From a virus (Duplodnaviria; Heunggongvirae; Uroviricota; Caudoviricetes), in IMG/VR virus record IMGVR_UViG_649989948_000010, positions 1-31,670 of that record: a stretch of 31,670 bases of DNA; one strand, given 5' to 3'. The translations under genes were made by a program, and so were the position numbers. Below, piece by piece: positions 2,335-29,002 of the stretch (position 1 is its first letter; the number at the start of each line of letters is the position of its first letter). The notes beneath the pieces were generated by a model, which searched no databases, was not told the DNA's origin, and worked only from the letters and a program-made list of their open reading frames with translations.

Positions 2335-3897
2335 ATGAAAATGACAAGTATTCAACAACGTGCAGAGCTTCATCGTCAAATCTGGCAAATTGCTAACGAT
2401 GTCAGGGGTTCGGTCGATGGATGGGATTTTAAGCAATACGTTCTGGGCGCACTTTTCTACCGTTTTATCAGCGAAAATTTTTCCAGCTATATTGAAGCCG
2501 GTGATGACAGTATCTGTTATGCGAAACTGGATGACAGCGTAATTACTGATGACATTAAAGACGATGCCATCAAAACCAAAGGTTACTTCATCTACCCAAG
2601 TCAGCTTTTCTGCAACGTAGCTGCGAAAGCAAATACCAATGACAGACTGAATGCAGATTTAAACAGCATCTTCGTTGCTATCGAAAGTTCTGCTTACGGT
2701 TACCCTTCAGAAGCTGACATCAAAGGTTTGTTTGCTGATTTCGATACCACCAGTAACCGCCTGGGTAACACCGTTAAGGATAAAAATGCCCGCCTGGCTG
2801 CGGTTCTGAAAGGGGTTGAAGGGTTAAAGCTTGGCGACTTTAACGAACATCAGATTGACCTGTTCGGCGATGCCTATGAGTTCCTGATTTCTAACTATGC
2901 CGCGAATGCTGGTAAGTCAGGCGGCGAGTTCTTTACACCGCAGCACGTCTCTAAGCTGATTGCACAACTGGCTATGCACGGGCAGACCCACGTTAACAAA
3001 ATCTACGACCCGGCCGCAGGTTCCGGTTCGCTGTTGTTGCAGGCGAAAAAGCAGTTTGATGACCATATCATCGAAGAAGGCTTTTTTGGTCAGGAGATCA
3101 ACCATACGACCTATAACCTGGCGCGTATGAACATGTTTTTGCACAACATCAACTACGACAAGTTTGATATCAAGTTGGGCAATACGCTGACTGAGCCGCA
3201 CTTCAGAGATGAAAAACCGTTTGATGCCATCGTTTCTAACCCGCCGTATTCGGTGAAATGGATTGGCAGCGATGACCCGACGCTGATTAACGATGAACGT
3301 TTTGCCCCGGCTGGCGTTCTGGCCCCCAAATCCAAAGCTGACTTTGCGTTTGTATTACATGCGCTGAACTATCTTTCGGCCAAAGGTCGCGCTGCGATTG
3401 TCTGCTTCCCAGGCATTTTTTACCGTGGCGGCGCGGAGCAGAAAATCCGTCAGTATCTGGTCGACAATAACTATGTCGAAACCGTGATTTCACTGGCACC
3501 GAATCTGTTCTTTGGCACCACTATTGCCGTCAATATTCTGGTGCTGTCTAAACATAAAACGGATACCAAAGTTCAGTTTATTGATGCCAGCGAACTGTTC
3601 AAAAAAGAGACTAACAACAACATTCTGACCGATGCTCATATCGAACAGATTATGCAGGTATTTGCCAGCAAGGAAGATGTTGCTCATCTGGCGAAATCTG
3701 TTGCGTTTGAGACTGTTGTCGCGAATGACTATAACCTGTCGGTGAGCAGCTATGTGGAAGCGAAAGATACTCGCGAAATTATCGATATCGCTGAGCTGAA
3801 TGCTGAGCTGAAAACCACGGTCAGCAAAATCGACCAGTTGCGTAAAGATATTGATGCGATTGTTGCTGAGATTGAAGGTAGCGAGGTACAGGCATGA
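2335..3897 (+). CDS. hsdM: Type I restriction-modification methyltransferase subunit HsdM (type IC-like)
   Basis: 520 aa; N6-adenine MTase motifs ([12 protein letters not shown]); N-terminus matches the EcoR124-family HsdM as I recall it; 4-bp ATGA overlap with hsdS. Confidence 0.93.
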
Positions 3898-5141
3898 GCG
3901 AGCTGAGTTATCTGGAAAAACTGCTGGATGGGGCTGAGGTTGAGTGGGTAGCATTAAATAAATTAGCAACTTTTTTAAAAGGGAAGTCTTTACCTAAAGA
4001 AAAAATAACTCCAGATGGCAATAGATATTGTATTCATTACGGTGAGCTTTTCACTCATTATGGTCCCATAATTGACAAAGTATGCTCAAAAACAAACCAA
4101 GCAATCAATGAGTCAATTCTATCTGAAAAAAATGATGTTCTAATGCCAACGTCAGACGTTACACCAAGAGGTTTGGCTACAGCTAGTTGCATTCAAGAAA
4201 GTGGCGTTATTTTAGGCGGCGATATTTTGATTATTAGATGCTCTGGTGTTGATGGTAGATATCTAAGTAATTTCATAATAAATAACAAAAAAAAGATATT
4301 GCAAATGGTTAAAGGTTCTACTGTTTATCATTTGTATGCTAAAGATATAGGTAAATTACTTATCCCCATCCCTTGCCCCAACAACCCGGAAAAGTCGCTG
4401 GCTATCCAGTCTGAAATCGTCAGGATTCTGGATAAATTTACTGCACTTACCGCTGAGCTTACCGCTGAGCTTAGCATGCGTAAAAAACAATACAACTACT
4501 ATCGCGACCAGTTGTTGAGTTTTAAAGAGGGTGAGGTTGAGTGGAAAGCTTTGGGGGAAATTGGTGAAGTTCGTATGTGTAAACGAATCCTAAAATCACA
4601 AACATCTTCTGAGGGAGAGATTCCATTTTATAAAATTGGGACATTTGGTAAGGAACCCGATTCCTATATATCTAGAAAACTATTTAATGAATTTAAAGAA
4701 AAATATAGTTATCCTAAAGTTGGCGAAGTATTGATTTCTGCCAGTGGGACCATCGGCAGGACTGTTATATTTGATGGTAGGGAATCATATTTCCAGGATA
4801 GCAATATTGTCTGGATTGAAAATAATGAAAAAATAGTTTTAAATAAATATTTATTCTATTTCTATAAAATAGCAAAATGGGGAATATCTGAAGGTGGAAC
4901 TATTAAAAGACTTTATAATGATAACTTAAGAAAACTTATGATACCAGTACCATTTCCTGATTCTCCTGAAAGATCGCTAGTTGAACAACAAAAAATAGTG
5001 AAATTACTGGATAAATTTGATGCTTTGACCAATTCCATCACCGAAGGTCTTCCGCGTGAAATCGAGTTGCGCCAGAAACAATACGAGTACTATCGTGATT
5101 TACTGTTCAGTTTTCCCAAACCTGAAACTATCAGTAACTAA
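3894..5141 (+). CDS. hsdS: Type I restriction-modification specificity subunit HsdS
   Basis: 415 aa; conserved central ([16 protein letters not shown]) and C-terminal ([37 protein letters not shown]) regions flanking two AT-rich variable domains. Confidence 0.9.
4448..4471 (+). repeat. Tandem 12-bp repeat (TACCGCTGAGCT x2) encoding TAEL-TAEL in the HsdS central spacer
   Basis: Direct tandem duplication read in the sequence; repeat number in this spacer sets recognition-site spacing in type IC systems. Confidence 0.85.
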
Positions 5142-5262
5142 TTGACCATTGCTACCGACCGGATCACCTTAACATCCGGTCTATATAGAGACTATTTTTT
5201 ACACGCCGGAAGTCGCCCTTAAAGCCCTTCCGGCCCTTGCCAGACGGCACAAAGGATGCGCT

Positions 5263-8200
5263 ATGACTCATCAGACACACACCATTGCTGAATCCAATAA
5301 CTTTATCGTTCTTGATAAGTACATCAAAGCCGAGCAAACAGGCGACAGCTACCAGAGCGAATCGGACCTGGAACGTGAACTGATTCAGGATCTGCGGAAT
5401 CAGGGCTATGAATTTATTTCCGTAAAATCTCAGTCGGCGATGCTGGCCAACGTTCGGGAACAGCTTCAGAACCTCAATGGTGTGGTGTTTAATGACAGCG
5501 AATGGCGGCGTTTCACGGAGCAGTATCTGGATAACCCGAGCGATGGCATCCTGGATAAGACCCGTAAAATCCATATCGACTATATTTGCGACTTTATTTT
5601 TGATGACGAGCGTCTTGAGAACATCTATTTGATAGATAAAAAGAATCTCATGCGCAACAAGGTGCAGATTATCCAGCAGTTTGAACAGACGGGTTCTCAT
5701 GCTAACCGTTATGACGTCACGATCCTGGTTAATGGCTTACCGCTGGTACAAATCGAACTGAAAAAGCGCGGCGTGGCGATTCGTGAGGCCTTTAACCAGA
5801 TACATCGTTACAGCAAAGAGAGTTTTAACAGCGAAAATTCTCTGTTTAAGTATCTGCAACTGTTTGTCATTTCCAACGGCACCGATACCCGTTACTTTGC
5901 CAACACGACAAAGCGCGATAAAAACAGTTTTGACTTCACCATGAATTGGGCGAAATCAGACAACACGCTGATTAAAGACCTCAAAGACTTTACCGCCACC
6001 TTTTTCCAGAAACATACCCTGCTTAATGTCTTAGTGAACTACAGCGTATTCGATGTTAGCCAAACGCTACTGGTGATGCGACCGTACCAGATTGCCGCCA
6101 CTGAGCGCATTCTGTGGAAAATTAAGAGTTCCTTTACAGCGAAGAACTGGTCAAAACCGGAAAGCGGTGGGTATATCTGGCACACTACCGGTTCAGGTAA
6201 AACCCTCACCAGCTTTAAAGCCGCGCGTCTGGCAACAGAGCTGGACTTTATTGATAAAGTCTTCTTCGTGGTCGACAGGAAAGACCTCGATTACCAGACC
6301 ATGAATGAATATAAGCGTTTTTCGCCAGACAGCGTCAACGGCTCGGAAAATACCGCAGGTCTTAAACGCAATCTGGATAAGGACGATAACAAAATTATCG
6401 TCACCACTATTCAGAAACTTAATAACCTGATGAAAGCAGAAAGCGACCTGCCTGTATACAATCAGCAAGTGGTGTTTATATTTGATGAATGTCACCGCAG
6501 CCAGTTTGGAGAAGCGCAGAAAAACCTGAAGAAGAAATTCAAACGCTATTATCAGTTTGGTTTTACCGGCACACCTATTTTCCCGGAAAACGCCTTAGGC
6601 TCAGAAACGACCGCCAGCGTATTTGGTCGTGAATTGCATTCGTATGTAATTACCGATGCGATTCGTGATGAAAAAGTGCTCAAATTCAAGGTGGACTACA
6701 ACGATGTGCGGCCACAGTTTAAATCTTTAGAGACAGAAACCGACGAGAAAAAACTGAGTGCGGCTGAAAATCAGCAGGCATTTCTTCATCCCATGCGTAT
6801 ACAGGAAATTACGCAATATATTCTGAATAACTTCCGCCAGAAGACCCACCGTACTTTCCCAGGTTCCAAAGGCTTTAATGCCATGCTGGCAGTGAGTAGC
6901 GTGGATGCCGCGAAAGCCTATTACGCGACGTTTAAACGGTTACAAGAGGAAGCAGCTAATAAATCGGCTACCTATAAACCGCTGCGTGTTGCAACAATCT
7001 TCTCCTTTGCCGCCAATGAAGAACAAAATGCCATTGGTGAAATTTCCGATGAAACTTTTGATACCAGCGCAATGGACAGCAGTGCTAAAGAGTTTCTTGA
7101 CGCTGCAATTCGTGAGTATAACAGCTATTTTAAAACTAACTTCAGCACCGACAGTAACGGTTTTCAGAACTACTATCGTGATTTAGCCCAACGGGTTAAA
7201 AATCAGGATATCGATCTGTTAATTGTCGTTGGGATGTTTTTAACCGGCTTCGACGCTCCAACATTGAACACGCTATTCGTCGATAAAAACTTGCGTTTTC
7301 ACGGCCTGATGCAGGCATTCTCCCGTACCAACCGCATTTATGACGCTACTAAAACCTTCGGTAACATCGTCACTTTTCGGGATCTGGAACGCTCAACCAT
7401 TGATGCCATAACGCTGTTTGGTGATAAAAATACTAAAAATGTGGTGTTAGAAAAGAGTTATGCTGAGTATATGGAAGGCTTTACAGATGCTGCCACTGGT
7501 GAAGCTAAACGCGGCTTTATGGCAGTAGTTTCAGAACTGGAACAACGGTTCCCTGACCCTGCCAGTATTGAAAGTGAAAAAGAGAAGAAAGACTTCGTAA
7601 AACTGTTTGGTGAATACCTGCGTGCCGAGAACATCCTGCAAAACTATGATGAATTTGCCACGCTGAAAGCCCTGCAACAAATCGATCTTAGCGATCCTGT
7701 TGCGGTAGAAAAATTCAAAGCAGAACATTATGTGGATGATGAAAAGTTCGCTGAATTGCAAACAATTCGTCTCCCTGCTGAACGCAAGATTCAGGATTAT
7801 CGTTCTGCCTATAACGATATTCGCGACTGGCAGCGCCGTGAGAAAGAAGCTGAGAAAAAAGAGAAATCAACCACTGACTGGGATGACGTAGTTTTTGAGG
7901 TCGATTTGCTGAAGTCTCAGGAAATAAACCTGGATTATATCCTTGGACTGATTTTCGAACACAACAGACAAAATAAAGGCAAGGGCGAAATGATCGAAGA
8001 GGTCAAACGCTTAATTCGTTCAAGCCTGGGGAACCGGGCGAAAGAGGGCCTGGTGGTCGATTTTATTCAGCAAACGAACCTGGATGATTTACCAGACAAA
8101 GCCAGTATCATTGAGGCATTCTTTACGTTTGCTCAACGCGAACAGCAACGTGAAGCAGAAGCATTGATAAAAGAAGAAAATCTCAATGAAGAGGCGGCGA

Positions 8201-11793: not shown

Positions 11794-12049
11794 TCGAACT
11801 GTCCTTGTTGTTTTTCTCCTTCACTAAAGGCCGTGTACTTTTCGCTTCGCGTGAAGAACCAGAGGCAACAATCGCCCCCACGTTCGCAACAACTGACGCT
11901 TGATTATCTAAACGTTCATTCAGCAACCGAACGGTAGTCTCTAGTTCATCAAGACGTGACATAACACGACCGCTAAACAATTCGGCCAAAATTTGACGTA
12001 AAGAACGAGGACGTTTAGTTGCAGAAGTGAAATAGGTTTGACGTGCCAT
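11555..12049 (-). CDS. Hypothetical protein (164 aa ORF; only the first ~85 aa look protein-like)
   Basis: Good GGAG RBS and ATG at 12049; downstream half overlaps the 83-aa ORF in another frame and is low-complexity S/H/C-rich; true 3' end uncertain. Confidence 0.3.
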   Translation of the reverse strand: MARQTYFTSATKRPRSLRQILAELFSGRVMSRLDELETTVRLLNERLDNQASVVANVGAIVASGSSREAKSTRPLVKEKNNKDSSNGKFSKKEAETNGLRSHYSFTGDGSRSSRPEPFDAGFIHHHTSVDDNYHHSSRASCHSGWDDGGCDTSSSSSYSGSCCD

Positions 12050-12078
12050 GTGGACTCCATCCAGTGTCAGAAAGAGTT

Positions 12079-12100
12079 GCGGCTGGCGATCGCCAGCCGC
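12079..12100. terminator. Perfect 22-bp palindrome GCGGCTGGCGATCGCCAGCCGC between RNase H and the next gene
   Basis: Perfect inverted repeat; flanked by T/C-rich sequence on both strands. Confidence 0.4.
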
Positions 12101-12197
12101 CTTTCTCGTTCCATCCTGGAACTGTGTCTTACCGACACATTGTCATCCTGACGCTGATAAGATACATGATTTAAAATGATAGGTAAACACTTACTTA

Positions 12198-12788
12198 CTA
12201 CTTGTTATAAACAAAACCAATATCTTTCTTGTGAGGCATATCTGCTGCTGAAAAAGCTGCGATCTTCGCGAGTCGATCACATATTTCATTTTCACGATGC
12301 CCGGCGTGACCTTTAACCCACTTCCAGCGAACATTATGTCGACTTGCGGCCTCATCCAGACGCTTCCACAGATCAACATTCTTTACCGGTTTTTTGTCAG
12401 AAGTCATCCATCCATTGCGTTTCCACCATTTCATCCACTGTGTCATGCCGTTTTTCAGATACTGGCTATCAGAGTACAAAATAACGTTGCATGGATATTT
12501 CAAACGCTCCAGCCCGATAAGTGCCCCCATCATCTCCATGCGGTTATTGGTGGTGCTATGAAAACCATCTGAGAACTCGCGTTCCTCACCACCATACTGG
12601 AGAACTATACCGTAACCGCCCGGGCCACCCGGATTTTTAAGGCAAGAGCCATCACTGAAGATTTTCACGGTTTTAAGCTGGGGATTGAACTCTACGACAG
12701 GCGTTGTGGAATTGGTGCGGGGAGAATTTTTGTTTTTGTCATTTTTGCGAGTTTTTGCTTGCGATCGGGCTGGTGTCTTCGTCGTCAT
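12198..12788 (-). CDS. rnhA: Ribonuclease HI
   Basis: Strong match to E. coli RnhA motifs (FTDGSC, TNNRMEL-like, [21 protein letters not shown]); start placed at internal MTTKT with AGGAG RBS rather than the longer ORF-track start at 12875. Confidence 0.85.
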
Positions 12789-13373
12789 ATAAACTCCTGA
12801 ATCAAGCGCCGCGCCGATTTTTTTTCCTCGCGCGTGCGCACACGCGTGCGTGTTAATAATTATTAAAATAAACAAATTACTTCCCAGAACAGGTTTTTAT
12901 AAACCTGAACTGAACGAACGAAGTGAGTGAAGTTCACCTCGAACGAAGTGAGAGGTTGTCTTTTCAGGTAATACTCTCCCAGGGAGGTGAGTACAAAATT
13001 TCCTCACCAACCTGGTCGTTTCATAACCTGAAAAGTTATGACCTAAGTCTACTGCCAGCTTAGGCTTGGGAAGTTATGGATGACAGCACCCCAGAACCGA
13101 GATCTTCCCACACTTTATGAAGGGGAGTACTGGATTCAACCTCTCGAAACACCCCAGACTCGACAATCATAAAGTGACCCTTGTCTCTGCTCACTTTGGT
13201 TCCCCCTTCCCCAACCCCTAAACGGTGCCGGTTCTACGCTGGTAGTGAGCTTTTTTAAACCTGACGCCAGTGACGCTTACCCCCACCCATCAGGTCGAGC
13301 CTCCAATCTACGACTGGAAACTATCAGATCTTAGCACTTACAATTCACTTTATGAATAGTTTGTACTTATCTA

Positions 13374-13628
13374 TCATTTCGATTGATTATTTTTTCGACC
13401 ATGTAGTTGAACATTCAAGGCAAACACCTCGTTGATCAACTCACCTAAAAGCTGTTCAACAAGTTCGCGATGCTCCCCAAGATGCAAGCACTTAATTGCC
13501 CATTCGTACAAGTTGAAAGCCTGCTCACGATCTTTCATCATTTCACGAGCCTGGGCCAGAAAATCGCTCTCTACGAGCGCAACGACATTAGTCGGGTATG
13601 ACATGTTGGTTTCCTTAAAGTGGTTCAT
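13374..13628 (-). CDS. Hypothetical protein (84 aa)
   Basis: ORF in operon context; no family recognised. Confidence 0.4.
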   Translation of the reverse strand: MNHFKETNMSYPTNVVALVESDFLAQAREMMKDREQAFNLYEWAIKCLHLGEHRELVEQLLGELINEVFALNVQLHGRKNNQSK

Positions 13629-13710
13629 AAAATCGATTTTAAAGCGTCTGGGAAGGGGTTCTAGTGGATTCTGTAGTGGTGTTCAGGTCTGGGAGTCTCT
13701 GATATAAAAC

Positions 13711-13769
13711 AGCCTGCTTCCGTATATTAATAATTAATATGTAGTTATTTATATATACAGAAGCAGGCT
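13711..13769 (-). terminator. 10-bp perfect inverted repeat (AGCCTGCTTC/GAAGCAGGCT) enclosing a 39-nt AT-rich loop, downstream of the methylase gene
   Basis: Stem read directly; followed on the minus strand by GTTTTAT; loop contains TATAAATA on the minus strand. Confidence 0.4.
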
Positions 13770-13790
13770 AATTACAGACGCCAGAACAAA

Positions 13791-14384
13791 CTAAGCAGCC
13801 TTCTTTGATGGTCTTTTTTTCCTGATCACATTCGCAGGATCATACCCTCCCAGACTTTTCATGACGTCCAAAGGGATCTTGCTTATAGAGTGCCCAGCGT
13901 CCTGACAGAATCCTCGAAAAACAACGAGCATACTGCCACCTGGGTTGATGTTTACTTCTACCTGACCCAGATTTACGTCAGGCTCGACAAACGCTACGCG
14001 GCCACCAGACAGAATAATCGTCTCATTCGCACACTCTGTTGCACGCTCATACCACTTTGTATCTAGGGATTGAGGAATTAGCATCACTGTTGTAACTCCA
14101 CGAGCCTGCTCACGTATAGCCGCATCAATCCAGGGGGAGATTTTGGAGTAGGGTGGATTGAGGAAGGCAATTGTACCTGGCTGTCCCCATTCAGATTTCA
14201 AAGCATCACGCTCAACGCCTATGAAATTAGGCAGCTTTGCATTGTCCTTGTTGCAGGCAACGTCAACATCAAATGTCACTCCAAGATAACGTTGAATGGC
14301 AGAAAACAGCCAGTCAGGTGTTCTCCAGAGGTCACGAAGAGAGTTGTCGCGCTTTCGCTGTTTGATTTTTTCGGCTGCAATCAT
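13791..14384 (-). CDS. Phage-type DNA N6-adenine methyltransferase (Dam-like, orphan)
   Basis: 197 aa with NPPY motif (LNPPYS); size and layout typical of phage orphan Dam-family methylases. Confidence 0.7.
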   Translation of the reverse strand: MIAAEKIKQRKRDNSLRDLWRTPDWLFSAIQRYLGVTFDVDVACNKDNAKLPNFIGVERDALKSEWGQPGTIAFLNPPYSKISPWIDAAIREQARGVTTVMLIPQSLDTKWYERATECANETIILSGGRVAFVEPDVNLGQVEVNINPGGSMLVVFRGFCQDAGHSISKIPLDVMKSLGGYDPANVIRKKRPSKKAA

Positions 14385-14461
14385 CTTCTTTCTCGATAGG
14401 TAAGTATATACCTATTTTTGCATTTGATTTTATGTCTGGCAATCAAATAAAACGCGCCAGA

Positions 14462-14499
14462 AATGCAAACGAGAAGCTCTCTGGCGCGTTTTTGTGGTG
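14462..14499. terminator. Bidirectional intrinsic terminator
   Basis: 10-bp stem ACGCGCCAGA/TCTGGCGCGT, 18-nt loop, A-run upstream and T-run downstream. Confidence 0.5.
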
Positions 14500-14567
14500 C
14501 TGGGTATGTGATTGGCTTACCCAGTACTATAAAGCTCTCTGTGGGCTTTATTTTAAGTAGGGGAACG

Positions 14568-24756: not shown

Positions 24757-25326
24757 TCAAATGAGAGACTTAAGAACATCGCGCACCTGGCGGAACTGAT
24801 CTGTTTGCATACCGGTATGGATGGCAGCCACCGCATCAGCCAAATGTTCGTTTTTGTTCACGAGAACATCCTGTCCAGATTGCTTACGACGCAGCCACGG
24901 TGCTTTAGGGTGTTTTTTCGTAGCCCACTGGATAATCTCTTCTTTCGATGTAGTAAGTTTATTGCCGACAAAATGCTTGATTTCGTTTGGAGTAACCTGG
25001 ATCAATGGCTTATCCACACACGCAAGTACACCGATACAAATACCGTAAGACGTCTGCGAACGAGAGTTTTGGCTCCCAACCGGTAGCTCACAAAAAACCA
25101 TATTTGCCTTATCAATGATTGGCTTCGCAACACGCCATATTTCACTGGCTCGGCGCAGATCGTCACTGTTCACACGAACGGTCTTTTTGTTACTCCCCGC
25201 TTTAGTCTCAACAAGAGTAAGGCCGTGAATCTCAAGTTCGTCCGTCTCAAGGTCTAAAGTGCCCACAGCAAGCCCAAAGTTGCTCATTGAGGGATCAACA
25301 CCAACTACGCTGATTTTTTTACTCAT
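24757..25326 (-). CDS. RuvC-like Holliday junction resolvase
   Basis: 189 aa; N-terminal VVGVDPS (compare RuvC GIDPG), acidic residues at positions expected for the RuvC fold; strong AAGGAG RBS. Confidence 0.55.
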   Translation of the reverse strand: MSKKISVVGVDPSMSNFGLAVGTLDLETDELEIHGLTLVETKAGSNKKTVRVNSDDLRRASEIWRVAKPIIDKANMVFCELPVGSQNSRSQTSYGICIGVLACVDKPLIQVTPNEIKHFVGNKLTTSKEEIIQWATKKHPKAPWLRRKQSGQDVLVNKNEHLADAVAAIHTGMQTDQFRQVRDVLKSLI

Positions 25327-28993: not shown

Positions 28994-29002
28994 TTATCCA
29001 CA
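28994..29002 (+). promoter_or_regulatory. DnaA box (TTATCCACA), possible remnant of an IncFII-type plasmid origin
   Basis: Exact DnaA-box consensus in a non-coding stretch upstream of the CPBP-pemI-pemK block; origin assignment is inference. Confidence 0.3.

Follow-up and report, generated by a model that had tools for sequence, protein, structure and literature searches.

A conserved island of SSU5-type phage-plasmids very probably encodes a large structured non-coding RNA

Introduction

Large bacterial RNAs that have complex folds supported by covariation and whose function is unknown are rare. Examples are OLE, GOLLD, ROOL, HEARO, and raiA; several of them have led to new biochemistry, and most such orphan RNAs sit in organisms that are hard to manipulate. 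GOLLD and ROOL, both large structured RNAs of unknown function, are often carried by phages and prophages of Firmicutes and other bacteria. Other RNAs of phages and plasmids include c4, which is about 77 nt long and is cut out of an operon transcript, the put RNA of phage HK022 (about 70 nt), the 6S RNA of phage lambda (194 nt), and RNA II of ColE1, also a conserved folded transcript, of about 550 nt. Here we analyze a stretch of tailed-phage DNA of 31,670 nt (IMG/VR record IMGVR_UViG_649989948_000010, positions 1 to 31,670), referred to as the window, in which an island between two genes of the minus strand is, with high probability, a gene for a structured non-coding RNA. The RNA is called RNA-1.

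Escherichia phage Cyrano (98%) and Salmonella phage SSU5 (88–90%) match the region, as do 687 plasmids from E. coli, Klebsiella, Enterobacter, Salmonella (among them pHCM2 of Typhi), Citrobacter, Cronobacter, and other hosts. Nearly all carrier plasmids are about 110 kb long and non-mobilisable. The window therefore belongs to a phage-plasmid of the SSU5/pHCM2 type. The genes around the island are all on the minus strand and form a long DNA-metabolism cluster. The local order of exonuclease, Dam methylase, a 76-aa protein, a gap of about 590 nt, and RNase HI is kept in every genus examined. The RepA replicon is about 17 kb away from RNA-1, and the plasmid state is held at about 5.5 copies.

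An earlier sequence-only reading had marked positions 12876–13373 as a non-coding island rich in repeats and C-runs, and had proposed a replication origin, a packaging site, a promoter cluster, or a structured RNA, with G-quadruplex prediction among the suggested checks. The features are present in that interval, but a slightly smaller stretch makes up the functional unit, with the RNA spanning about 13321 to about 12866 and a promoter ahead of it at 13328–13356. Among the candidates, the structured RNA is the one borne out by the covariation, the asymmetry between G·U and A·C pairs, the conserved promoter, and a published discrete transcript.

Results

Conservation and distribution of RNA-1

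When copies from E. coli, Salmonella, Enterobacter, Citrobacter, Cronobacter, and Klebsiella, representing six genera, are aligned, positions 12900–13299 are 93–100% identical, whereas the flanking coding sequences are about 75–80% identical. The edges of the conserved segment are sharp and lie near 12880 and 13300. The non-coding stretch is the most constrained sequence of its neighbourhood and is conserved above every flanking protein gene, indicating constraint on nearly every nucleotide.

In addition to the 687 plasmids, which come from PLSDB, RNA-1 was found in 12 phage records and in 232 of 5,426 complete E. coli genomes (about 4%). It is a single-copy element located almost always on a phage-plasmid and chromosomal in only 2 of 234 places, and its interpretation as a host-derived or repeated element was rejected on these grounds. 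None of the RefSeq records checked annotates an RNA gene at this position; some call a short hypothetical open reading frame (ORF). Further copies were retrieved from IMG/VR, GTDB, and metagenomes with an invariant 18-mer as the query. IMG/VR contributed one more lineage (L082, L084, and L087 in our numbering of loci), GTDB contributed copies from Kluyvera and a relic from Buttiauxella, and the metagenomes close copies only. Pattern scans of GTDB genomes and metagenomes disclosed no lineage beyond the SSU5-like elements of Enterobacteriaceae, and 23 of the 26 GTDB matches were due to chance.

The relic, from Buttiauxella gaviniae ATCC 51604 (L095, positions 4830–5163), retains just the 3′ 335 nt of RNA-1, which are 97.6% identical and joined to the end of an SbcD-like ORF. 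It lacks rnhA, the gene for RNase HI, and has its breakpoint at a position corresponding to about 13198 of the window.

The core of RNA-1 is too invariant for the central helices to be tested, and diverged copies were therefore sought. They were reached through contigs that encode divergent members of the family of the upstream 76-aa protein. In nhmmer searches, L208 scored 368 bits and L201, L202, and L203 about 165 bits, compared with about 560 bits for the core family. L207 (Logan SRR8137545) was rejected as a divergent homologue. It was assembled from bisulfite-converted reads, so that every C reads T; artefacts of this type in public collections can mimic divergence.

Fold and covariation

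The fold was evaluated on two alignments. Alignment A1 contains 55 close copies (52 distinct sequences), for which RNAalifold predicted 134 pairs. Canonical pairs are formed in 99.8% of the cells of A1, compared with 35–48% when the partners are slid, and double compensatory changes occur in nine pairs, compared with zero to two in the slid controls. Alignment A2 contains 11 representatives, including the divergent homologues, and has a curated structure of 134 pairs in 21 helices. In A2, 95.6% of the cells pair (36–54% when slid). Compensatory double changes affect 38 of the 134 pairs, whereas shuffled alignments yield 15.6 ± 2.8 (none of 500 reaches 38) and slid ones 4–11. The covariation score is 0.254, compared with at most 0.089 when slid. 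The minimum-free-energy z-score of RNA-1 is −4.3. With a covariance model of positions 13110–12960, named R1, L201 scores 135 bits; L201 is among the sequences that seeded the model. Compensatory pairs in excess of all controls coincide with the absence of a conserved reading frame. The comparative data strongly support a predicted structured RNA of about 455 nt with 21 helices, composed of the following parts, all read from the minus strand.

12866–13321, minus strand: RNA-1 gene, about 455 nt, identified from conservation, covariation in A1 and A2, strand asymmetry, and RNA-seq over 13060–13194; both ends are proposed positions
12880–13298, minus strand: ultra-conserved core, 93–100% identical in six genera compared with about 75–80% for flanking coding sequences
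13299–13321, minus strand: helix 1, a 5′ terminal hairpin that is hypervariable but always pairs, with at least six versions and compensatory changes in 5 of 8 pairs
13258–13296, minus strand: helix 2, a long hairpin with GGGUGGGGG (the second C-run), double compensatory changes in 5 of 15 pairs
13189–13250, minus strand: helix 3, closing a junction, compensatory changes in 3 of 7 pairs
within 13189–13250, minus strand: G-rich hairpin CCGGCACC/GGGGUUGG in the helix 3 junction, compensatory changes in 3 of 6 pairs
within 13189–13250, minus strand: invariant GGGGAAGGGGGAACCAAAG (the first C-run) in the helix 3 junction
12951–13181, minus strand: central domain, closed by a long-range helix of 13181–13177 with 12956–12951
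13176–13111, 13110–13067, 13065–13041, and 13035–12960, minus strand: four hairpins or sub-domains of the central domain
12979–13015, minus strand: hairpin GGTGAG...CTCACC, the inner and outer stem of one RNA hairpin
12915–12952, minus strand: direct repeat, two copies of CUCACUUCGUUCG in the RNA on either side of the short hairpin GAGG[UGAA]CUUC at 12940–12929
12864–12914, minus strand: 3′ terminal structure, a helix UUCAG/CUGGG around a variable hairpin, followed by a U-rich tract at 12875–12864

The central domain shows compensatory changes in A2 blocks 177–243, 244–287, 263–276, 289–313, and 339–376 once L201, L203, and L208 are included. For example, GGUGAG/CUCACC of the window is replaced by AGUGAG/CUCGCU in L208 and by AGCG(U)GGG/CCCUGCU in L201 and L203. 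At the 3′ end, the terminal helix is kept through G·U and A-U changes, its inner hairpin covaries, and a U-rich tract follows in every lineage (for instance, AAAUUUUUU in L203). Two helices proposed by RNAalifold, CGAGGUGA/UCACUUCG and ACUUC/GAAGU, were not supported by the divergent homologues and were dropped from the curated structure.

Most of the repeats that had attracted attention in the primary sequence are helix arms or duplicated segments of one folded transcript, and not independent oddities. The direct repeat CGAACGAAGTGAG occurs in exact copies at 12915–12927 and 12940–12952, as had been noted; by our estimate, the chance expectation for such a pair of 13-mers in 640 nt is about 0.003. 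L201 and L203 have no second copy because of a 7-nt deletion; the hairpin there reads GAGG[GAAA]CCUC, and CGUUCG is kept on both sides. The second copy is a lineage-specific 7-nt duplication. The hairpin noted at the same time is formed by GGTGAG (12986–12991) and CTCACC (13003–13008), within the inverted repeat I4. The repeated AACCTGAA motifs were likewise found, as WAACCTGAA at 12901–12909 and 13024–13032 with a near copy at 13251–13264; WAACCTGAA has four matches in the whole window compared with 0.56 expected. The C-runs are CCCCCTTCCCCAACCCC at 13203–13219 and CCCCCACCC at 13281–13289, and the GC skew local to the island is −0.24.

The idea that the corresponding G-runs form a G-quadruplex fails because they are in part covarying helix arms. 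Only two G-runs (GGGGAR RGGGRGAA) are conserved, and four are needed. The other G-runs become GGUGUC or GCCGCUC in relatives, where they are paired in helices, and GGGGUUGG is replaced by GGUGUCGG or GCCGCUCG in other lineages.

Several segments of RNA-1 are present in more copies than they have partners. Two copies of UGGGAAG compete for one CUUCCCA (segments 12880–12886, 13104–13110, and 13067–13073), two copies of CACUUCGUUCG (12915–12952) compete for one CGAGGUG, and UCUGGG is present three times. These duplicated segments could form mutually exclusive pairings. The duplicated positions are invariant in the core family.

Strand, promoter, and transcript

Pairing identifies the strand. Canonical pairs fill 95.6% of the A2 cells when the alignment is read as the minus strand, compared with 83.6% when it is read as the plus strand. 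G·U pairs outnumber A·C mismatches 191 to 18 in A2 and 1401 to 27 in a set of 90 sequences. The excess of G·U over A·C indicates an RNA read from the minus strand.

A promoter precedes helix 1 at a fixed distance:

13328–13356, minus strand: sigma-70 promoter with an extended −10; −35 TTCATA at 13356–13351, 17-nt spacer, TG at 13336–13335, and −10 TAAGAT at 13333–13328

The key positions of GTGnTAnnAT are invariant in all lineages, in which the −10 hexamer reads TAAGAT, TAAAAT, TACAAT, TAGAAT, or TAACAT, and a −35-like hexamer is located 16–18 nt above TGnTAnnAT across lineages. Transcription is expected to start near 13321. The 3′ structure looks like a terminator, which would place the end of RNA-1 near 12866. 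Both the promoter and the 3′ end were called from conservation across lineages instead of from generic scans. The region thus holds one promoter, and not the cluster of promoters that had been considered.

The only annotated ORF of the island is CYRAN_81, of 44 aa, on the minus strand at 13060–13194. In agreement with the impression that the island lacks coding character, its longest ORF has at most 46 aa. Of the 82 unique scorable copies, 25 carry a frameshift or a truncation of CYRAN_81, and substitutions within its frame show no codon pattern; a protein-coding role was rejected because the frame is broken in other lineages. The region contains no conserved small hydrophobic ORF.

RNA-seq of E. 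coli LF82 carrying Cyrano, which is 98% identical to the window here, lists CYRAN_81 among the prophage genes expressed in lysogens, 12-fold above the local background (PMC9928086). Its normalised count is 117, compared with 9.5 for the upstream gene and 8.4 for rnhA (PMC9928086 Table 1, S1 Table). The log2 values of CYRAN_81 are 6.8–6.9 in LB, 9.0–9.3 after 1 h in medium, and 10.3 in macrophages at 6 h, whereas those of its neighbours are 2.6–5.8 throughout (PMC9928086). Since the CYRAN_81 frame is broken in 25 of 82 copies, the RNA-seq signal belongs to an RNA and not to a protein gene. The published data indicate a discrete transcript over RNA-1 in lysogens.

These data bear on the proposal that the island functions as DNA, that is, as a packaging site, a protein-binding array, or a single-strand initiation structure, or that it is a degraded or small protein gene. 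The island is rich in repeats and inverted repeats, G·T wobbles are tolerated in hairpins of single-stranded DNA, and the annotators of Cyrano called the 44-aa ORF. However, in 38 pairs the pairing is maintained by compensatory changes, and on one strand only; the published data indicate a discrete transcript in lysogens; and the island is located in the middle of the DNA-metabolism gene cluster. The frameshifts of the ORF in other lineages and substitutions that ignore codons speak against a protein. Such a DNA-level or protein-coding role is extremely improbable.

Neighbouring genes and a second RNA in the sister lineage

RNA-1 is flanked by two protein genes:

13374–13604, minus strand: upstream gene of a 76-aa three-helix protein (phrog_5343), which precedes RNA-1 in 114 of 114 loci
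12198–12788, minus strand: downstream gene rnhA, RNase HI with a basic N-terminal extension (Pfam RNase_H, E = 2e-45)

AlphaFold2 predicts three helices for the 76-aa protein with a pLDDT of 79. It has no Pfam match and no fold match in the PDB at E ≤ 0.001, and its candidacy as a Rop-like RNA binder was rejected for these reasons. An inverted repeat, CAGCCTGCTTC ... GAAGCAGGCT, surrounds a 38-nt AT-rich loop at about 13712–13772, between the Dam methylase gene and that of the 76-aa protein. Inverted self-matches occur there in all relatives, and the repeat may be a terminator or a protein-binding site.

The RNase HI of the phage-plasmid is 59% identical to a chromosomal rnhA-type match from an E. 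coli record. The alignment with that match covers only residues 38–192; the N-terminus (12671–12788) is a basic low-complexity extension of about 40 aa. Between the 3′ end of RNA-1 and the start of rnhA, a T8 run is followed by a perfect 25-nt tract of alternating purines and pyrimidines, CGCGCGTGCGCACACGCGTGCGTGT (12819–12853). The tract is kept across genera whereas the surrounding spacer is not, and it is prone to the formation of Z-DNA or a hairpin. A complementarity between the ribosome-binding site of rnhA and the 3′ hairpin was dismissed as specific to one lineage.

The likely RNase H gene of the divergent Enterobacter-type lineage is closely followed by a gene that gives a weak Tad2-like match in Pfam (PF11195; L201 and L202, 4105–4416), and other lineages have Ant, Rha, TerB, or Tci genes in the same zone. 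This suggests that the zone beside RNA-1 is a variable accessory or counter-defence neighbourhood.

The same gene order is found in a sister lineage, represented by 30 Klebsiella plasmids, whose rnhA is 53% identical and whose gap contains a different sequence of about 440 nt, called RNA-2. RNA-2 is located at 3425–3865 of L079 and is also present in L194–L199; divergent copies are at 2780–3192 of L205 and L206. It follows the phrog_5343 gene, whose intrinsic terminator precedes it, and usually stands before rnhA. RNA-2 is more conserved than its flanks, and its fold has a z-score of −6.55 against shuffles. Compensatory changes affect 25 of its 151 pairs, compared with 5–11 when slid, and G·U pairs outnumber A·C mismatches 146 to 16. 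Neither blastn, nor nhmmer profiles searched each way, nor a covariance model for the central domain of RNA-1 detected homology between RNA-1 and RNA-2 (best hit 7.7 bits, E = 1.4). The Moellerella lineage contains the gene of the small protein and has no match to either RNA profile.

Independence from rnhA

The gene rnhA is downstream of RNA-1 in 96 of 107 loci and absent in the remaining 11. In L073, RNA-1 is followed by a lipoprotein-like ORF in convergent orientation. RNA-1 is thus not always followed by a regulated co-directional gene. Because it is kept where rnhA is absent, RNA-1 is an independent gene that most likely acts in trans.

The loci without rnhA also argue against a pure role as an rnhA leader. 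In a cis-acting leader, a short transcript would idle in lysogens and its fold would control read-through into rnhA and the accessory genes, by attenuation or by put-like antitermination. Several observations fit such a leader: RNA-1 is part of a long co-directional gene cluster, in which it is preceded by a promoter and has a terminator-like end ahead of rnhA; in lysogens RNA-1 is abundant and rnhA silent; and the mutually exclusive pairings of CACUUCGUUCG with CGAGGUG and of UGGGAAG with CUUCCCA could provide a switch. However, RNA-1 is intact in the 11 loci without rnhA, RNA-2 is likewise kept where rnhA is missing, as in L196 and L198, where the gene after it is convergent, and the second repeat copy that one switch requires is missing from L201 and L203. 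A length of 450 nt, about 20 helices, and near-invariant loops far exceed what is known of leaders. A leader function is unlikely.

RNA-1 was also considered as the R-loop or primer RNA for a second replication origin, used in the lytic state and resembling RNA II of ColE1, with the phage RNase HI cutting the hybrid between the G-rich transcript and its C-rich template. The rnhA gene is directly downstream in most loci, RNA-1 is G-rich with the negative GC skew given above, and its 3′ end is followed by an AT-rich tract (12853–12880) and the alternating purine-pyrimidine tract. Nevertheless, the replication origin proposed from sequence is not supported here: the region contains no iterons, tandem repeats, or DnaA boxes, and the cumulative GC skew has no inflection. 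Tandem repeats are absent from 12000–14500, and the nearest DnaA boxes are at 6113 and 15533. Furthermore, RNA-1 has no Rfam match to a plasmid replication-control RNA family, its G-runs are partly covarying helix arms, and it is abundant in the plasmid state, in which the RepA replicon about 17 kb away is present. The retention of RNA-1 where rnhA is lost weakens a primer function coupled to RNase H without eliminating it. A primer role is quite improbable. Perfect DnaA boxes (TTATCCACA) are found at 25010–25018 and 28994–29002, towards the repA end of the window, and probably belong to the origin of the plasmid state.

The order of promoter, RNA, terminator, and nuclease gene resembles toxI-toxN, and RNA-1 is expressed in lysogeny together with other toxin-antitoxin genes of the phage-plasmid and is close to accessory and anti-defence genes, such as the Tad2-like gene of L201. 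RNA-1 might accordingly be the RNA of a toxin-antitoxin-like or defence system, either of type III, as in ToxIN, or a structured mRNA of type I, as in hok. However, it has no tandem-repeat array, the nuclease is an ordinary RNase HI, PADLOC finds no match among the neighbouring proteins, no conserved small hydrophobic ORF is present, and RNA-1 persists without rnhA. The probability of such a system is very low.

Search for known families

An Rfam scan, suggested together with a tRNA search as a check on the island, found nothing at gathering thresholds in the whole window (Rfam 15). With permissive settings, the best hit of 21 bits, compared with a threshold of 56, was to an unrelated viral element outside the core. 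The families without a match include GOLLD, ROOL, RNase P, tmRNA, 6S, C4, RNAI, Sok, riboswitches, and ribozymes. ARAGORN identified no tRNA or tmRNA in the window. No description of RNA-1 was found in the literature, nor a matching family in Rfam 15.

Discussion

The explanation that we favour by a small measure, taken as a whole, is that the island is an independent gene of the minus strand for a structured non-coding RNA of about 455 nt, which is made in lysogeny and acts in trans. Transcription would start near 13321 from the extended −10 sigma-70 promoter and proceed in the direction of the neighbouring genes. The RNA would open with the fast-evolving 5′ hairpin, continue with about 20 further helices built around a core of about 380 nt that hardly varies, and terminate at the 3′ hairpin and U-rich tract, at about 12866, before rnhA. 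RNA-1 would be produced during lysogeny, when the phage-plasmid persists in plasmid form. The stable folded RNA may then serve in trans as a scaffold, decoy, or catalytic partner of a highly conserved component of the host or of the phage-plasmid. RNA-1 is probably not a DNA site, an mRNA, or an rnhA leader. The specific assignment as a trans-acting scaffold or decoy is tentative, with a probability somewhat below even.

Several points weigh against this explanation. The step to a trans-acting scaffold or decoy was reached by elimination. RNA-1 is located inside a co-directional operon and beside RNase H in about 90% of loci, which a role in cis fits equally well. The ends and strand of the transcript were deduced from sequence comparison. 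G·T wobbles also stabilise hairpins of single-stranded DNA, and the strand asymmetry taken by itself is therefore compatible with a single-stranded DNA structure. Generic consensus scans flagged neither the proposed promoter, because only 8 of 12 hexamer positions match, nor the 3′ terminator, and for this reason both ends of RNA-1 have the standing of proposals. Within the fold, several central helices depend on two or three divergent sequences (L201, L203, and L208), and helix 16 of A2 (319–332 with 383–396) displays register shifts and no clean compensation.

It is an evenly balanced proposition that RNA-1 founds an undescribed class of large folded RNAs of enterobacterial phage-plasmids, in which RNA-1 and RNA-2 are both expressed in the plasmid state and the near-invariant cores point to a ribozyme-like, ribonucleoprotein-scaffold, or self-assembling function. 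If so, the roles of the class could include maintenance of the plasmid state, the decision between lysis and lysogeny, or defence and counter-defence, and an orphan large RNA would become accessible in the genetically tractable E. coli, Salmonella, and Klebsiella. RNA-1 is present in about 4% of complete E. coli genomes, in Typhi pHCM2, and in hundreds of clinical Klebsiella and Enterobacter plasmids. Knowledge of its role would fill a gap in what is understood of SSU5-type phage-plasmids, elements that spread antibiotic-resistance genes, and could explain why two unrelated large RNAs occupy one genomic slot. An entry in RNA family databases would stop the calling of the spurious 44-aa ORF.

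Comparison with known systems

RNA-1 shares individual properties with several described RNAs. Like ColE1 RNA II, it is a long folded transcript with its own promoter and G-rich segments, an RNase H is encoded beside it, and a small helical protein on its other side. However, it has no Rfam match to a replication-control RNA, the neighbouring protein has no Rop-like fold match, the RepA replicon is elsewhere, and RNA-1 persists without rnhA; the RNAI model of Rfam, by which an antisense RNA I gene and the stem-loops of RNA I and RNA II would be recognised, gave no match. Lambda 6S, StxS (pR′-tR′), and HK022 put resemble RNA-1 as promoter-proximal terminated transcripts that are abundant in lysogens and located upstream of silent lytic genes. 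In contrast to them, RNA-1 is two to six times longer, has much more structure and much stronger conservation, and also occurs without a co-directional gene after it. The c4 RNA of P1 and P7 and the CI RNA of P4 are, like RNA-1, phage-plasmid RNAs of lysogeny, and antirepressor-type genes (Ant, Rha) are downstream of RNA-1 in some relatives; unlike them, RNA-1 has no match to the C4 family of Rfam, and no conserved complementarity to a downstream target was found. ToxI and other type III antitoxins have the same order of promoter, abundant RNA, terminator, and nuclease gene, whereas RNA-1 has no tandem repeats, its nuclease is a canonical RNase HI, and PADLOC gives no match.

The closest likeness is to GOLLD and ROOL and, more loosely, to OLE and raiA. 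RNA-1 belongs to the same size class of hundreds of nucleotides and has many helices supported by covariation. As in GOLLD and ROOL, its loops are conserved too, it is carried by phages, and its function cannot be deduced from its neighbours. It differs from them in its lack of an Rfam match, its Enterobacteriaceae hosts, the absence of a tRNA gene from the window, and its expression in the lysogenic state. RNA-1 answers to the definition of none of the described families; we regard it as a new RNA family, akin in kind to GOLLD and ROOL.

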